A stretch of DNA of 64,000 nucleotides, from positions 596-64,595 of the forward strand of contig JBBRUC010000003.1 in NCBI GenBank assembly GCA_038248205.1, given 5' to 3'. The notes beneath the pieces are model-generated. The model ran no database searches and was not told where the DNA came from. It was given only the letters and a program-made list of their open reading frames with translations. Position 1 is the stretch's first letter; each line of letters opens with the position of its first letter. The position numbers and the translations under genes are program-made. The DNA is from Thermoanaerobaculia bacterium. GTDB taxonomy: Bacteria; Acidobacteriota; Thermoanaerobaculia; Multivoradales; UBA5704. Below are positions 18,971-26,472 of this stretch, in pieces.

Positions 18971-21900
18971 ATGCCGAGTTGCCTCTCGTCGCTTTCGAGT
19001 GCTCGACGCGCCTGGATTCTTTGCGCGCTTTCCCTGTTCGTCGTCTTCGTGCTCGGCGCGCCACTGGCCGCCCAGCCTTGTGGAACCTGTCCAGGCGCGG
19101 ATCTCAACGTCTTCGTATGCAATCTTGCCGAGATCCCCAGCGCTTCGAATCCAAGCTGCAACACTTTGCCGGAGACCCAGAATTGCCGCACGCCCGTGAT
19201 TATTGCTCAGGCCGTCGAGGTAGTCTCCCAAGGAGGAGGCTTATTCACGGCTCGACTGCCGGTCCGGCTCGAGACCCTGGGCAACACTATGATCACGCCC
19301 AACGGCCGCTTGGATCTGTTCTGGAACCAGGGGCCTCCAGTCTCGCTTTCGACCTCCTTGTGCGAGAACAACACGACCGACGTTACAAAGACCTATCTGG
19401 AGCGCAGCAACCTTTCGTGTGCGGGCGCTCCCTATGACTTCGGAGTCTTTTCGGTGAGAGCATTCGTTTGCAGGGGCGCCGGCTCCTGCGAACGGTTCGC
19501 CGATGCAGCCAATTTGCCCTTTCGAGTGACCAAAGCTGATCTTGGTTGCCCCGAGCCACCGCTGTTCGGCTGCGACGACGACGCCTCTTGCACGACTTGC
19601 CTTGCGCTCGGTGGCGGCGGTTGTGGGGCGAGCTTGAGCGTCTCGGGCGAAGGTGCTGCTGTCACGCCCTGCCAAAGTGGGCCAGGAGCCCTGCTGCGCT
19701 ACCGTGCCGGAGGAGCAGGGGGTCCGGGCCTCCCCGGCTCGACCGCCTGGAACGCCACCCTCGGTCAATATTGGTCGCACGACTACGCGGAGCGCCTCGT
19801 CACCGACCCACCGGGTGACAATTCGCACGTCTGGCTGACCACCCGCTTCGCTACCTTTCGCGAATTTCGAGACCTGAACGGTGACAACGTTTACGAAAAG
19901 ATCCTTCCGAGCGACGAACACCGGACTCTCACCCGTGTTCCCGGAATCGGCTGGAGGCTGGAGGAACTCGACGGCACGTCCCGCGAATTCGATGTGACCG
20001 GCCGATGGACGCGCACCACCGACCGCAACGGCAATGCCAAATCGGGGTTCTACGGTGCCGGGGGACTGGAGCACGTCGATTTTCCGGACGGCCGGAAGGA
20101 GGAACTCACTTACGTAGGGGGCCTCCTGGCGACCATCACCGAAGTCGGTGTAGACGGCTCCCGGCGCTCGTGGGGTTATGCCTGGTCCGGTCTCGATCTG
20201 CAACGGATCACCCGCCCAGACAGCACGAAGTGGGAATTCTTCTACGCCGATCCCAGCCATCCGGGCTTCCTCACCCGAATGGATCTGGTCGGCACCGACG
20301 GCTCGCGGCGAGTCGAAGCGGCATATAGCTATGATGCGAGAGGTAACGTGGTCGAAATGTGGAGGGGGGCGCTCGTCTCGACGGACCCGTCGGCGGTCGA
20401 TCGTTGGCAACTCACCTATGACAATCCGATCCGACCAACCCGAACCGAGGCGAAGGATGCTCTCGGCGTTACTTCGGTCTACACCATTGGCCGCGATGTG
20501 ACCGGATCTTCGAAGCCGAAAATCCTGCAAATCCAGGGCGACTGCCCTACCTGCGGCACCGGCCCGAACTCCACTTTTGAGTACAACGATGCCGCAAACC
20601 CGCTGCTACCAACCGCCATTACGAGCGGTCGCGTGTTGCGAACCGAGATGGACTACGACGGGGTCGGCATGCTCTTGCGCCGCCGCGAGGCGGTGGGGAC
20701 TCCGAGGCAGCGCGAGACGACCTACACGTACTCGCTGATGTTTCGGGCGCTTCTGACTTCAATGGCCAAGCCCTCGACGTCCGGCGGTGTCGCGCAGCGA
20801 ACCTCGACCTACTTGCTTGATCCTCAAGGTAATCCGACGACGAGCCGCATCCAAGGGGTCGAAGCGGGCAGCGCCTTTCTGTTCGACACGATCACGACGT
20901 ACAGCGGCGTGGGTCAACCGCTCTCGTTCGATCCGCCCGGTTTTGCCTTAACCGACCAGACCACCTATACCTACAACTTCGCGGGTCGCAACGGTTTGAT
21001 CGCTGATTCGCGTACCGATCCTCTCGATCTGGGTACGACGCGCTTCGAGGTGGACGGCTGGAACCGTCGGACCCGTACGATCGATCCCAATGGGGTGGGA
21101 ACGACCACCTCCTTCGACACTTTGAACCGAATCGAATCGATCCGCCAGGAAGGCGCCGGGGCGGCTCCGGATCTGATCACCACCTCGACCTACAATCCAT
21201 TTGGCGATCTGATCTGGATGACCCTTCCTCGCGGCAACGTGATCGAGTACGGCTATGACAATGCTGGGAGGCTGATTTCGGTTGAGCGAAAGCCGGATGC
21301 GGCAACGTCCAAAGAGCGCACCCTCTACGCCCTCGACACGGTGGGCCACCGTTCGAGGGAAGATCGGCAGCGCTGGACCGGCACGGCCTGGGAAACACGG
21401 GCCACCACGAGCTTCGATTATTCGACCCGTTGCCACCTGGACCGCGTTCGTTTTCCGGATGGGTCAGCTTCAGAATACCGCTACGATTGCGACGGCAACT
21501 TGAGCGAGACGTGGGACTCCAATCATCCGATGGAGTCCAACCCGACCGCGACGATGCGCTACGACTACGATCCGTTGAATCGGCTCACTTCGGTCACCCA
21601 ACCGTGGGAGGGCACCGGCTCTGCGGTGACCACCTACGACTACGACGTTCAGGATCACCTGACCGCGGTTGTCGACGCGAACCAAAATCCGACCACCTAT
21701 ATTTATTCTGACCGCGATCGAATGACCTTGGAAGACTCGATTGTCACGGCGGTAAAGAGCTTTACCTACAACCCGCATGGAGAGCTGATTCAGGAGACCG
21801 ACGCCCGTCCGGTGACCACGACCCGCACGGTCGATGCGGCGGATCGGGTCACGCGGATCAGCTATCCGGACCCGTCTCTGGAAACCACCTACACGTACGG

Positions 21901-23584
21901 TACGACGTCAACGAGCTTCGACGTAGGCCGCCTGACCTCGATCGAACGTCCTGAGGCGATCGTAACCTACGCCTACGATCGATTCGGACGGATGATCGGC
22001 GACGGCGAGATGAATTATCAGTACGACGCCAACGGCAACCGGCAGACGCTTACGTATCCGAACGGAGTCCAGGCCCAGCAGAGCTTCGACTTCGCGGATC
22101 GGCCGCTCGGAGCAATGCTGGTCGATGGCGCGAACTCGCCGCAAATGCTGGCAAGCGATGCGATCTACGAACCGTTCGGACCGCTCGCGAGCTTGACGCT
22201 CGGCAACGGGCTCGTCGAAACGAGAACGTTCGATCAGCGCTATTTTCCGCAATCCATCGTGGTTCCCGGCCGACTCTCCTGGACTTACGACCAAGACAAG
22301 GTGGGTAATCCGCTGGCGATCACGGACACGTTGGTCCCAGCGAACAGCCGGACCTTCACGTATCAGGATCCCCAATACTTCCTCCGGGGGAGCACGGGTC
22401 CATGGAACCCGGAGATTTTCACCTACGACAAGATCGGCAACCGGCTGACCGATGGCGGCAATGCCTACCTCTACCGCTTGAATTCTACTGGCGGCAATAC
22501 ACCGGTGCTCCTCAGCCGGGGAGGCTTGGCCTACACCTACGATTCAATCGGCAATGCGACATCGATCAATTCGACGTCTATCATCTACGGCGACGACCGG
22601 GCGATGCAGGAGCTGGGCAAGGCGCGCTCGGCCTACTACGACGGGCGAGGCTTCCTCTCGAGCTTCAGCTACTCGAAGTACGGACCGATCGCCGTGCCAG
22701 CTTTCACAGCTCCGGTTTACGGCTCCGAAGGGCGCCTCTACGCCCGCACGGATCGCGATGACTTGCTTGGCACGAACACCACGGCTCATGTCTTCTACTT
22801 CGGAGATCGCCCGATTACAACCCTTGAAAAAGGGACGATCAACCGCCTGCTGTACCTGACGACCGATCATCTGGGTACGCCGGCATTGGCGACCGACGGA
22901 ACTGGAGGGATTGTTTGGCGCGGAGTCTTTCGTTCCTTTGGCGTCGACGATAGCGGGGCGCAGGCGGCTGGAGTCTTCCTGCGGTTCCCGGGCCAGTGGC
23001 AAGATGACTACTGGCTGGGATTGGGAAAGTTTGAACTCAGCTACAACGTACACCGGTGGTACGAGGCGGGGGTTGGGCGGTATACGACTCCGGATCCGGT
23101 GGCACCTCCGGCAGTTGGCCACCTCTATTCGTACGGTATCTCGAACCCAAGCCATTATGTCGACCCGGATGGGCGAGCGCCTCGACTGATCAATTCGGCC
23201 TGGTTTCCTCCGGAGGTTCCCTGTCTCACCGCGGCTGGCATTGGAACCGCCTGGCATTGGATTGTCCGCGGTAGCGGTCCGCGCTTCGCCCACTGCTACG
23301 CCAGCTGCCTGCTGGCCAAGTGCGGAGGGCAGAACCTGGCGATTCAGATGGGAGCGAACAAGGAATTCTTCGACCTTGCGGTTTGTGCAGGCATCAAGAG
23401 TTCGTCGGGCGGCATGCTGGCGTTTGTGCGCGAAAAGCACTGCCATAGTGCATTCCAAGACAGCGACATCGGGGACAATAAGTTTGGCATCAACTGTCCG
23501 ATGAACATCTCTTGTGGCCAACGGTGTGGCGACCTCTTCCCCGAACCGGACACACCAGGAGGGCCCTTCTCAAATGTGCGCTAA
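18971..23584 (+). CDS. RHS/YD-repeat polymorphic toxin with Sec signal peptide and orphan C-terminal domain
   Basis: There are many YD repeats (YDANGN, YDYDVQDHLT, YGYDNAGRL, YTYDSIGN). The RHS core end reads DHLGTPALATDGTGGIVWRGVFRSFG ... RWYEAGVGRYTTPDPV ... YVDPDGR. The start is taken at ATG 18971, which gives MPSCLSSLSSARRAWILCALSLFVVFVLGAPLAAQ. 133 residues follow the DPDGRAP boundary. Confidence 0.9.
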   Translation: MPSCLSSLSSARRAWILCALSLFVVFVLGAPLAAQPCGTCPGADLNVFVCNLAEIPSASNPSCNTLPETQNCRTPVIIAQAVEVVSQGGGLFTARLPVRLETLGNTMITPNGRLDLFWNQGPPVSLSTSLCENNTTDVTKTYLERSNLSCAGAPYDFGVFSVRAFVCRGAGSCERFADAANLPFRVTKADLGCPEPPLFGCDDDASCTTCLALGGGGCGASLSVSGEGAAVTPCQSGPGALLRYRAGGAGGPGLPGSTAWNATLGQYWSHDYAERLVTDPPGDNSHVWLTTRFATFREFRDLNGDNVYEKILPSDEHRTLTRVPGIGWRLEELDGTSREFDVTGRWTRTTDRNGNAKSGFYGAGGLEHVDFPDGRKEELTYVGGLLATITEVGVDGSRRSWGYAWSGLDLQRITRPDSTKWEFFYADPSHPGFLTRMDLVGTDGSRRVEAAYSYDARGNVVEMWRGALVSTDPSAVDRWQLTYDNPIRPTRTEAKDALGVTSVYTIGRDVTGSSKPKILQIQGDCPTCGTGPNSTFEYNDAANPLLPTAITSGRVLRTEMDYDGVGMLLRRREAVGTPRQRETTYTYSLMFRALLTSMAKPSTSGGVAQRTSTYLLDPQGNPTTSRIQGVEAGSAFLFDTITTYSGVGQPLSFDPPGFALTDQTTYTYNFAGRNGLIADSRTDPLDLGTTRFEVDGWNRRTRTIDPNGVGTTTSFDTLNRIESIRQEGAGAAPDLITTSTYNPFGDLIWMTLPRGNVIEYGYDNAGRLISVERKPDAATSKERTLYALDTVGHRSREDRQRWTGTAWETRATTSFDYSTRCHLDRVRFPDGSASEYRYDCDGNLSETWDSNHPMESNPTATMRYDYDPLNRLTSVTQPWEGTGSAVTTYDYDVQDHLTAVVDANQNPTTYIYSDRDRMTLEDSIVTAVKSFTYNPHGELIQETDARPVTTTRTVDAADRVTRISYPDPSLETTYTYGTTSTSFDVGRLTSIERPEAIVTYAYDRFGRMIGDGEMNYQYDANGNRQTLTYPNGVQAQQSFDFADRPLGAMLVDGANSPQMLASDAIYEPFGPLASLTLGNGLVETRTFDQRYFPQSIVVPGRLSWTYDQDKVGNPLAITDTLVPANSRTFTYQDPQYFLRGSTGPWNPEIFTYDKIGNRLTDGGNAYLYRLNSTGGNTPVLLSRGGLAYTYDSIGNATSINSTSIIYGDDRAMQELGKARSAYYDGRGFLSSFSYSKYGPIAVPAFTAPVYGSEGRLYARTDRDDLLGTNTTAHVFYFGDRPITTLEKGTINRLLYLTTDHLGTPALATDGTGGIVWRGVFRSFGVDDSGAQAAGVFLRFPGQWQDDYWLGLGKFELSYNVHRWYEAGVGRYTTPDPVAPPAVGHLYSYGISNPSHYVDPDGRAPRLINSAWFPPEVPCLTAAGIGTAWHWIVRGSGPRFAHCYASCLLAKCGGQNLAIQMGANKEFFDLAVCAGIKSSSGGMLAFVREKHCHSAFQDSDIGDNKFGINCPMNISCGQRCGDLFPEPDTPGGPFSNVR

Positions 23585-24194
23585 TTCCCGAGGTCGATCT
23601 CGGGCTGGTGCATTAGGTTGCATTCTAGTTCTGCTCCTCAACGGTACCTGCCGCCCTACTGATTGCCCAGCCGAACCGGCCGACTCAAGAGCAACATCGG
23701 CGGTATGTCGGGGAACCCTTGAGGATAGAGCTGGCTATCTGCACCGGTTGGTCTTCCGACCTCTGTCGGGCTCCTCGTGGAAGCGCTGCGTAGATATTTC
23801 GCTGCTCGAAGGGTTCTGGCCGGGAATGACGATTCGGCAAGCAAGGAAGGTAATCGGACCCGAGAACTCGGAGGGTAGGAGCCGGTTCGGAACCTTCTGG
23901 CTCTATGAACGACCCGGCGGGACGATCCGAATCTCTCTGGAAGACATCGGTTCGACCATCTTGCCGGTAGATCGAGCGTGGAGATTGAGCGCGCTTCCTC
24001 GCGACCGCAGGATCGAGGCGGTTTTCGGTCCAGAGATCGTGGGGAAGATTCCGTCGGGGCTTACGGACTATGAAGCCGTCGTGCTCACGCAGTGCGGCGT
24101 TCCGGCGATTCATGTAGATGTGAAGAGTGGGCGAGTTGCAAGGGTGGCCTGGAACCGGAACCGAGGCTCAATGCCAAGCCCGCGCGAAAAGTGA
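23574..24194 (+). CDS. putative immunity protein 1 (exported)
   Basis: ATG at 23574 overlaps the RHS stop. The N-terminus has a hydrophobic segment, ALGCILVLLLNG. It is a paralog of the next gene (shared GF.PGMT..AR, RP.GT..ISLED.GS, W.LSA.P, RVAR..W). Confidence 0.6.
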   Translation: MCANSRGRSRAGALGCILVLLLNGTCRPTDCPAEPADSRATSAVCRGTLEDRAGYLHRLVFRPLSGSSWKRCVDISLLEGFWPGMTIRQARKVIGPENSEGRSRFGTFWLYERPGGTIRISLEDIGSTILPVDRAWRLSALPRDRRIEAVFGPEIVGKIPSGLTDYEAVVLTQCGVPAIHVDVKSGRVARVAWNRNRGSMPSPREK

Positions 24195-24284
24195 TAGCTT
24201 CGGACTGACCTTCGGTGCAGGCGCATCAGGCCGAACCGCCGGGGAGGCTTGGCTTACACCTACTGGCCCGTTTGGAATTCGGCC

Positions 24285-24956
24285 GTGACCAAGCTCGTGA
24301 TTTGCTGCTCGAACTTCTTGTTTAGGTTCAGGTTCTGTTTCCTGGCCACCCTTCTTGGGTGTGGCGACTTTCGCCCTGAGAGCTGCGCAGAAGATGGCCT
24401 CCGCGACTTGGCTTACACAGGCCCGTGTGTCGCGGGGGTACGTCAGCACGGGAGGAACGAGTTCTATGTCAGTTCTCGCCCTCGCTGCGCCTGGGAACGC
24501 ATGGTGAATCTCACGTATTTCGAGGGATTCCGTCCCGGCATGACCAACCTTGAAGCTCGGCGGCTACATGGCACCCCCACGAGCGTTGAACGTAACGGCC
24601 GGACTGCCATTTGGAACTTTCAGAGACCGATGGGTACGGTCTCGATCAGCCTTGAGGACCAAGGGTCGTCGCTTCTTGTCGACCGTTGGTGGCTCTTGAG
24701 CGCCTACCCCTTGAACCAAGCGCCTGCGCAGTCTCTTTCCGCGGAAGTGCTTCAAAGCGTAGGATCAAGAGGCAACGATTTTCAGATCGTCATTTTAAAC
24801 GGCTGTGGATTCCCGGCTGCAGAGATATCATTCGAGCGAAATCGCGTAGCACGAATCAGGTGGCTAGAGAATGCCGGATCATGGCATTCAAGAATGGCGA
24901 GCTTCGATGGAACAAGAGAGGCTTCCGACGGAGATTCTCGGAACGGAGGCCGGTGA
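24285..24956 (+). CDS. putative immunity protein 2 (lipoprotein, paralog of 23574..24194)
   Basis: A GTG start at 24285 gives VTKLVICCSNFLFRFRFCFLATLLGC with an LLGC lipobox. By eye it is about 35-40% identical to the preceding gene over the C-terminal ~130 aa. Confidence 0.6.
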   Translation: MTKLVICCSNFLFRFRFCFLATLLGCGDFRPESCAEDGLRDLAYTGPCVAGVRQHGRNEFYVSSRPRCAWERMVNLTYFEGFRPGMTNLEARRLHGTPTSVERNGRTAIWNFQRPMGTVSISLEDQGSSLLVDRWWLLSAYPLNQAPAQSLSAEVLQSVGSRGNDFQIVILNGCGFPAAEISFERNRVARIRWLENAGSWHSRMASFDGTREASDGDSRNGGR

Positions 24957-24999
24957 CCGGCGCGGCAACCAGTTCTCCGGTGCGTAGAATGGGCCGCCA

Positions 25000-26472
25000 T
25001 CACCGCGCCGGAACGAACCGCTCCCGGGCCAACGATCGCAATTCTTCCAACTCTTCGGCCCGTGTGCGGGAAAGCGGCAACGTCGCCGCCAACTCGGCGC
25101 TCAAGCCCTCCGTCGTCAGTCGATCGCCGTTGCCGTCGAGCAGGCCATAGAGGGCGGCTACGACGGCTTGTTCGATCTCGGCGCCGCTCCACCCTTCGGA
25201 TTCCTGCGCCAGGCGTTCCAGGTCGACTTCCGCGGGATTCTGGCGGCGTAGGCGGAGGTGAATCTCGAAGATCTCCCGGCGTTCTTCCCGGGTGGGCAGG
25301 TCGATGAAGAAGATCTCGTCGAAGCGCCCTTTGCGCAGTAGCTCGGGCGGCAGGGAGTCGAGGTCGTTGGCGGTCGCGACGACGAACACCGGTTCCTTGT
25401 GCTCTTGAAGCCAGGTGAGAAAGCTGCCGAACAGCCGGCGGGAAAGGCCCGCGTCGGCCGTGCCGTCGCCTTGGGCGAAAGCTTTTTCGATCTCGTCGAT
25501 CCAGAGGACGATCGGTGCCTGGGCTTCGGCGGTCTCTAGCGTGAGACGAAGGTTCTTCTCCGTTTCGCCGACGAACTTGTCGAACAGGCGCGACGGGTCG
25601 AGGCGGGCGAGCGGCAACCCCCACGAGCGGGCGATCGCCTTGGCGCTCAGGCTCTTGCCGCACCCTTGAACGCCCACCAACAGCAGGCCGCGCGGCGCCG
25701 GAAGCCCGAGGGTACGGGCCTTGGCGCCGAATCCGGCGTGGTGGCGCCGTAGCCATTCTTTGAGTCGGGCGGCGCCGCCGAGGTCGGCGATCTCGCCGCC
25801 CACTTCGCAGAGTTCGAGCACGCCGGTCTGCTCGATCTCCTCCCGCCGCGCGGCGAGCACGAGCGGCAGGTCGGCGGCGCAAAGCGCACCGTCCGACAGG
25901 GTCGCCCGGGTGATCAACCGCCGAATCTCGGCGATGGTCAGACCGCGCAATGCCTGGACCATCCGCTCCAGCTCTTCGCCTTGGAGTTCGAAGCGCAGCT
26001 TCGTCGTTCCGCGAAGGGCGCGGAACGTGTCGATGATCGACCTTCGGATCTCGTCGGCGTCCGGCCATTCCAGGCGGTAGCGGGCGGCGACCCGCGCCAG
26101 CTCACGCGGTAGGTCGAGGGACGGGGCGGAGAGGACGAGTGTGAGCAGTCGTCCCGGCGAGCCTTCCGCCAGCTCGCGCAGAGCCCGCACGACCCCCGGA
26201 GTTTCAAGGTAGGGATGGAAATCCTGAAGCAGGAAAATCGACGGCCAGGCGGTCGTGCGAATCGCGGCCAGGACCGCGAGCGGCTCGCACGCCTCGGGCG
26301 TCGAGGGGCGTGCACCTTCGCAGATCATCCCGGCCGAAACCGACCAGGTGTAGAACGTAAACCCCAACGCCTTGGCCGCGCGGGCGAGCCGTTCCCGCAG
26401 CCGCTCCTCGTCATACGTCTCGACGTAGAGGATCGGATAGCGGGACTGAAGGAGAAGGGAGAGATCTTCCAA
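25000..26472 (-). CDS. AAA+ ATPase, Ycf46-like
   Basis: The N-terminus [19 protein letters not shown] resembles Ycf46-type proteins. Walker A is GVQGCGKS and Walker B is [12 protein letters not shown]. There is an [28 protein letters not shown] second region of homology. Confidence 0.85.

Follow-up and report, generated by a model that had tools for sequence, protein, structure and literature searches.

The window, by which we mean the whole stretch of 64,000 nucleotides analysed here, comes from a Thermoanaerobaculia bacterium (assembly GCA_038248205.1, contig JBBRUC010000003.1, positions 596 to 64,595). It contains an RHS polymorphic toxin gene followed by two smaller genes, which we call Imm1 and Imm2, all three on the forward strand. 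The toxin gene (18971..23584) encodes 1537 amino acids when read from ATG 18971, the same length as the gene call in the collection; the longest open reading frame opens at GTG 18869. The C-terminal toxin tip is 136 amino acids long (23174..23581, forward strand) and begins after ..YVDPDG. Imm1 (23574..24194, starting at ATG 23574) is 206 amino acids long and is predicted to be an exported, membrane-tethered immunity protein, probably the cognate one. Imm2 (24285..24956, starting at GTG 24285) is 223 amino acids long and is predicted to be a lipoprotein-type paralog, probably an orphan immunity gene. Just before Imm2, on the same strand, lies a putative stub of the 3′ end of a former toxin gene (24253..24288), which reads LTPTGPFGIRP followed by a stop codon, about 11 codons in a frame offset by +1 from that of Imm2. 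A preliminary description of this DNA had quoted peptide strings from both of the smaller open reading frames, and both frames are present with exactly these strings.

The toxin and its C-terminal tip

The RHS gene is recognised by the Pfam families RHS_repeat (E 3e-24) and RHS (E 1e-7), with the first ~400 residues of the protein giving no Pfam match. At the N-terminus there is a Sec-type signal peptide, MPSCLSSLSSARRAWILCALSLFVVFVLGAPLAAQP (window 18971–19080). No gene for TssC/VipB, the sheath of a type VI secretion system (T6SS), was found in this genome, which is 93% complete. The signal peptide and the missing sheath gene together point to a toxin that is exported by the Sec route, independently of a T6SS.

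The tip contains nine cysteines, eight of which are invariant across eight homologs (tip alignment A5). The conserved pattern of the tip family is …GPRFAHCYASC..KCGG…GANKEFFDL…KHC.SAFQ.SD..DN..G..CP….C…C…GPF…. AlphaFold2 predicts the tip to be all-α, with a mean predicted local distance difference test score (pLDDT) of 83.3 and five to six helices, including residues 15–31, 36–51, 53–73, 81–92 and 96–106. A Pfam scan of the tip gave no match, the Pfam SAA family (PF00277) searched against the genome did not match the tip, and a Foldseek search of the AlphaFold2 model against the PDB returned nothing significant.

The identity of the tip is indicated by a profile–profile comparison. Using hhalign, a profile of the eight tips was aligned with a profile of 22 aligned prok-SAA domain sequences from the source data of PMC12419801, giving a probability of 98.3% and an E value of 2.6e-14 over 80 columns. 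Across the eight tips the motifs AHC, KE..D and D..D[N/D]..G vary little or not at all, and AHC, KE..D and D..DN..G line up with the prok-SAA motifs HC, RE..D and D..AN..GR, except that the final R of the GR motif is not conserved in the tips. These motifs fall on the proposed active-site positions, to which helix H2 contributes a His, H3 an acidic residue, and H4 an Asp together with sNxxG(R). Judged by these alignments, the tip belongs to the prok-SAA-type Lipocone domains, bacterial relatives of serum amyloid A, and its active site is apparently intact.

The prok-SAA family was placed in the Lipocone superfamily in a computational study (Burroughs et al., eLife 2025; PMC12419801). There, the predicted targets of prok-SAA toxins are lipid head groups or lipid-linked precursors, reached from outside the cytoplasm, and the toxins are listed together with ‘LP+Imm-BamE’ immunity proteins, Acidobacteriota included. 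The match to this family, together with its published context, supports a toxin that acts in the periplasm, which agrees with the suggestion of the preliminary description that the target lies in the periplasm or envelope. The predicted extracytoplasmic action also fits the nine cysteines of the tip, the Sec signal of the RHS protein, and the lack of a T6SS sheath gene in the genome.

Imm1, Imm2 and their family

Imm1 and Imm2 are paralogs. BLASTP aligns them with 64/184 identities (35%, E 2e-32), so that the relationship seen in the preliminary description is real, although it extends over 184 residues rather than the ~130 given there. Extension of the aligned stretch into the N-terminal region (LLLNGTCRPTDC vs TLLGCGDFRPESC) supports choosing the long start in both genes. 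Pfam and NCBIfam scans of Imm1, Imm2 and 68 family members found nothing at threshold. Word-based searches recovered just a handful of close relatives, which fall into two subtypes: Imm1-like (P0002–P0005, about 59–78% identical to Imm1) and Imm2-like (P0010–P0012, 39–47% identical to Imm2). A profile search covering 1.8 billion cluster representatives identified 205 representatives at E<=1e-3, mostly 180–210 amino acids long. A few of the 205 are multi-stretch matches in large proteins, and were rejected as false positives arising from WD40, Ig or ankyrin repeats. Of 400 other genomes sampled across the phylum, 399 lack the family and one has a weak partial match (E 7.6e-4); a sampled genome of the same genus, G266, contains no match to it.

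The genomic context of the family is consistent. In 8 of 10 contexts, the same Cys-rich tip lies directly upstream of the family member, and the window brings the number of independent tip–immunity pairs to nine. A search for related loci using the tip alignment gave only one locus per collection. The other eight pairs are found in L001/L002 (immunity protein P0002), L006 (P0012), L007 (P0010), L013 (a tip, then a protein of the Imm2 subtype), L014 (P0018), L015/L016 (P0020), L017 (P0023) and L038 (P0031). The tip and immunity genes overlap by 4 nucleotides in most of the foreign loci. Because the synteny of tip and family member is conserved in nine independent loci, an immunity role for the family is supported. 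Two members, P0011 (L008) and P0041 (L037), occur as orphans, each being an intact second gene behind an unrelated tip and the small partner belonging to that tip.

Export signals are common in the family. A lipobox-like Cys, located within the first 45 residues and preceded by at least eight uncharged residues, is present in 91 of 116 full-length representatives, 67 of which have A, G or S at position −1. The strict PROSITE pattern PS00013 is matched by 63/126 family members, and many of the non-matching members come from truncated gene calls or have a transmembrane anchor. In every tip-linked member with an available N-terminus, a hydrophobic signal segment runs up to a Cys. The gene call for P0012 (L006:9826-10459) is too short: its real N-terminus, MILPSRSAPVLVSLCALMVVGC, stands right after the tip stop codon and has a canonical lipoprotein signal (VVGC). 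Export is therefore a property supported at the level of the family, and the earlier view of both genes as encoding exported, immunity-like proteins finds support both in this census and in the synteny at nine loci.

The ATG of Imm1 lies 8 nucleotides before the toxin TAA, and not on the stop codon itself as had been described, giving an overlap of 11 nucleotides (ATGTGCGCTAA). The signal segment of Imm1, MCANSRGRSRAGALGCILVLLLNGTC (23574..23651, forward strand), corresponds to an AlphaFold2 helix at residues 9–23. It contains the hydrophobic N-terminal segment previously noted: RGRSR forms the n-region, 12 hydrophobic residues come next, and an atypical N-G-T-C stands where the lipobox is expected. 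This sequence aligns at the Cys with the canonical GIAGC of the ortholog P0002. Imm1 is very likely to be exported and membrane-tethered; whether it is lipidated is uncertain.

The signal segment of Imm2, MTKLVICCSNFLFRFRFCFLATLLGC (24285..24362, forward strand), carries the lipobox L-L-G-C. This had been called a textbook lipobox, which is correct for the L-L-G-C core; the full PS00013 pattern fails by one residue, because R16 leaves only nine uncharged residues ahead of the Cys. In P0010, P0011 and the L013 protein, this Cys has its counterpart in an N-terminal cysteine cluster, which is preceded there by a hydrophobic signal segment. Imm2, like Imm1, is very likely to be exported and membrane-tethered, and it is likely to be lipidated.

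Origin of the second immunity gene

Imm2 is preceded by a spacer of 90 nucleotides, the end of which is occupied by the stub, and the TGA of the stub overlaps the GTG of Imm2 (GTGA). All tips of the family terminate in P.GPF, followed by one to four more residues and the stop codon, and in most loci this stop overlaps the start of the immunity gene. The stub shares 13 consecutive identical nucleotides (GGCCCGTTTGGAA) with the tail of the L014 tip (…SPGPFGSAQ and stop), in the same phase and with the same number of codons to a stop that overlaps the immunity start. Among 1445 six-frame peptides from the window, only two contain GPF within their last 8 residues, namely the real toxin and the stub. 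We regard this as good evidence, though short of conclusive, that Imm2 formerly stood behind a tip of its own. As a separate observation, the spacer before the orphan P0041 (L037:3023-3112) reads …RLGPPFSHG…, which faintly resembles the tail …GGPFS seen in the tip family; this could be a further decayed stub, or the resemblance may be due to chance.

In a maximum-likelihood tree, Imm1 groups with P0002–P0005 (support 100/100), while Imm2 groups with P0010, which in L007 is found directly after a tip, and P0011 (support 100/99). The two clades are separated by several nodes holding other toxin-linked members. The nearest relatives of Imm2 are the proteins of L007 and L013, both after tips, and of L008, an orphan (45–47%). 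The closest foreign tip to that of the window is found in L001 (67%), and the protein paired with it, P0002, is also the closest full-length relative of Imm1 (62%). Since the window tip and Imm1 are thus both closest to the same foreign module, Imm1 is, by position and phylogeny, probably the toxin's own (cognate) antidote. This genome contains only two members of the immunity family and only one tip of this tip family.

The stub and the separate clades together lead us to favour the interpretation that Imm2 is an orphan immunity gene left by a displaced toxin tip, over an in-situ duplication or arms race. Both had been put forward in the preliminary description, and it is the former that fits the stub and the tree. 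Imm2 has what is expected of an orphan: its subtype differs from that of the resident cognate protein, and no matching toxin is present in the genome. The tip family also occurs as an orphan rhs fragment with an immunity gene in L001 and L006, and as an orphan fragment in a genome of the same genus, which shows that the modules do move as cassettes. The latter fragment (L026, G401:C46:5880-7379; open frame 632 amino acids) has a layout that mirrors L001 and sits downstream of a full-length RHS gene with another tip. At loci of this kind it is ordinary for a cognate immunity gene to be accompanied by an orphan one. In Enterobacteria, orphan rhs-CT/immunity and cdiA-CT/cdiI modules (CT, C-terminal toxin region) consist of an extra immunity gene of other specificity that lies downstream together with a toxin remnant, and are usually explained by displacement of a tip through recombination. 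The remnant there is typically a sizeable CT fragment, as it also is in L001 and L006 of the present family, whereas here only ~11 codons remain.

We consider it probable that the locus encodes a Sec-exported RHS protein with a prok-SAA tip, for which Imm1 is the cognate immunity protein, and that Imm2 is an orphan that remained after cassette replacement. On this model, the RHS tip would be an all-α, disulfide-rich enzyme that works from the periplasmic side on lipid head groups or on envelope precursors linked to a lipid carrier. Imm1, whose translation is coupled to that of the toxin, would carry a signal peptide and a Cys at the lipobox position, would be tethered to the membrane in the periplasm, and there would bind the tip and block it, in the producer as well as in its siblings. 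Imm2 would represent a different subtype of the same immunity family, anciently separated from that of Imm1, which in other genomes comes after another sub-lineage of this tip family. A cassette of tip plus Imm1 would have replaced nearly all of an older tip by recombination, such that Imm2 and the ~11-codon tail remained. If Imm2 is still expressed by read-through from the rhs operon, it would give protection from neighbours armed with the other tip subtype. No terminator-like site was found in 23400–25200, the stretch that contains both immunity genes.

Several observations weigh against this model, or against parts of it. The stub is short (~11 codons) and derives its significance from position and phase: a whole-domain hidden Markov model of the tip, searched against the six-frame peptides of the window, did not detect it (rank 254/1445), and its unconstrained local DNA score of 26 is a bare excess over the maximum of 25 in 300 shuffles. 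The assignment of Imm1 as cognate is based on just eight tip sequences, with identities of 45–67%. Imm1 may be signal-anchored instead of lipidated, because the canonical lipobox is missing (N-G-T-C), and the hydrophobic stretch of Imm2 is short and comes after two Arg residues. No strong ribosome-binding site belonging to Imm2 itself is obvious, and there is now no translated gene upstream to which Imm2 could be coupled. With a weak ribosome-binding context and its upstream coupling gene lost, Imm2 may be poorly expressed.

Of the other explanations, the first is that Imm2 is the working immunity protein, or that the tip requires a heteromer in which Imm1 serves as an accessory or chaperone. 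Imm2 does have the better lipobox, and the window tip is still 56–60% identical to tips that are paired with Imm2-type proteins. However, the gene coupled to the toxin is Imm1, an Imm1 ortholog stands alone after the closest tip (L001/L002), and a single family member follows the tip wherever the contig runs beyond the immunity gene. We therefore think this explanation improbable.

Slightly less probable still is a tandem duplication of the immunity gene in situ, followed by divergence in an arms race, with both copies acting on the resident toxin or one of them evolving a new specificity. The two genes lie side by side on one strand and in the same frame, are similar in length, and belong to one family. 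They are also similar in GC content at third codon positions, which is 62% in both, compared to 62–74% across the island and ~87% in the flanking housekeeping genes. Against this, each has much closer relatives elsewhere than its neighbour (62–80% for Imm1 and 45–47% for Imm2, vs 35% for the two with each other), other toxin-linked lineages fall between the copies in the tree, and the toxin-tail stub precedes Imm2. The dN/dS comparison that had been proposed for the pair gave dN 0.75–0.79, with dS saturated in every pair, making the ratios uninformative; the saturation of dS itself also counts against a local duplication. There is only a single family member after the tip in L001, L002, L006, L007, L015 and L017, the six loci covered by this check, the contigs of L013, L014 and L038 being too short for it. 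With separate and well-supported clades, closer orthologs elsewhere, and saturated dS, local duplication is not supported.

Equally improbable is that Imm2 is a decaying or silent relic, in effect a functional pseudogene, with no current role, as might be argued from the failure to find a promoter-like site of its own, the weak ribosome-binding context, the loss of its upstream partner, and the longest terminal branch in its clade (0.99): its frame of 223 codons is intact, it retains the 14 columns in which the subtypes do not vary, G95, W136 and W193 among them, together with the conserved cysteines, and the orphan members in L008 and L037 are intact too.

Structure, related systems and neighbouring genes

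The structure of Imm1 was predicted using AlphaFold2 with a 68-sequence alignment (pLDDT 88.6; predicted template modelling score 0.81). The model consists of an N-terminal helix, corresponding to the signal segment, a β-hairpin, and two lobes. Lobe 1 has the order α-α-β-β-β (helices 75–78 and 87–93; strands 99–103, 106–113 and 116–124), and lobe 2 has the same order after an extra strand at 134–142 (helices 147–150 and 153–156; strands 166–171, 177–184 and 187–193). An internal-repeat test found no detectable similarity between the two lobes.

The predicted fold has a BamE-like order, and Pfam BamE is the only family matched, below threshold, by more than two members. BamE/SmpA_OmlA proteins (PF04355) are likewise lipoproteins with a helix-helix-three-strand unit, and share the motif ‘G(M/I)T..(E/Q)(A/V)...(L/I)G.P’; they differ in that the match is not significant and nothing links the present family to the BAM complex. 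The likeness is also tempered by the following: it concerns the order of elements only; the best Foldseek match of the Imm1 model in the PDB has an E value of 0.23 and is not BamE; the Pfam BamE matches, in 6/68 members, are sub-threshold (best E 0.015); and in the family profile search PDB BamE chains were matched at E 0.25–0.34, on the segment ‘F.GF.PGMT..EA....G.P’. Within the phylum BamE was matched at 5 loci, too few for a BamE profile.

The closest published parallel in description is the LP+Imm-BamE family, which accompanies Min-Wnt, CapCone and prok-SAA toxins of the Lipocone superfamily (PMC12419801). Its members are also lipoproteins or membrane-anchored, are encoded directly downstream of a Lipocone tip, evolve fast, and have an α-α-β-β-β unit. 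The present family is larger (~200 amino acids), with a Cys-containing β-hairpin and two lobes, and the likeness is drawn from the published description. A second parallel is TelC–TipC of Streptococcus intermedius, in which a lipid II phosphatase toxin of the Lipocone superfamily is paired with a lipoprotein immunity protein (cited in PMC12419801). In both systems a toxin from this superfamily acts, or is predicted to act, outside the cytoplasm and is opposed by a membrane-tethered extracytoplasmic immunity protein. They differ in clade (TelC, vs SAA-Wnt here), in delivery (type VII secretion system/LXG, vs Sec-exported RHS), and in the immunity proteins, which have unrelated folds.

A few features of the surroundings are worth recording. 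An AAA+ ATPase gene (Pfam AAA, AAA_lid_3) on the reverse strand at 25000–26472 is convergent with Imm2, from which it is separated by a gap of 43 nucleotides; no evidence was found that ties this ATPase to the toxin locus. A second full RHS gene is present in the same genome (L030:1-2994; G000, contig C39), with a core that is 76% identical and a different tip (…LDPLGLAALTNNSCRPIMVK…). It is followed by a gene for a transmembrane-anchored protein of 162 amino acids (L030:2946-3434), which has a BamE-like motif ‘F.EI..GD....V...LG.P’ and is a candidate for another membrane-anchored immunity protein. In three foreign loci, the RHS array is adjoined by genes for an extracytoplasmic function (ECF) sigma factor and a Peptidase_S74-domain protein, located upstream of rhs in two (L015:959-3027 and L016:10-2078) and downstream of the array in the third (L006:12720-14864). 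These genes are absent beside the RHS gene of the window, and may constitute a conserved regulatory or accessory module.

A more speculative idea, in our view rather doubtful, is that the ~200-residue family, with its Cys-stapled hairpin, its two lobes of BamE-like helix-strand order and no significant neighbour in the PDB, represents an immunity fold that is new in structure and reserved for SAA-like Lipocone toxins, in which case the two subtypes, standing side by side, would form a natural specificity-swap pair. If so, the subtype pair and its partner tips, which are 56–67% identical, could reveal how the tips are recognised and what is cleaved by bacterial homologs of serum amyloid A, and would bear on the ancestral biochemistry of serum amyloid A.

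The general principle is already published, and what is gained here is annotation and a test system, rather than a concept. Three unannotated genes of an Acidobacteriota genome are assigned a putative function: the tip as a prok-SAA Lipocone domain, and the two genes that follow as members of an unmodelled immunity family of ~200 clusters. The locus would be a clean natural example of a cassette replacement that has left behind an orphan immunity gene and a minimal toxin stub, and it offers a small system in which the periplasmic action and the substrate of SAA-like Lipocone toxins could be tested directly.

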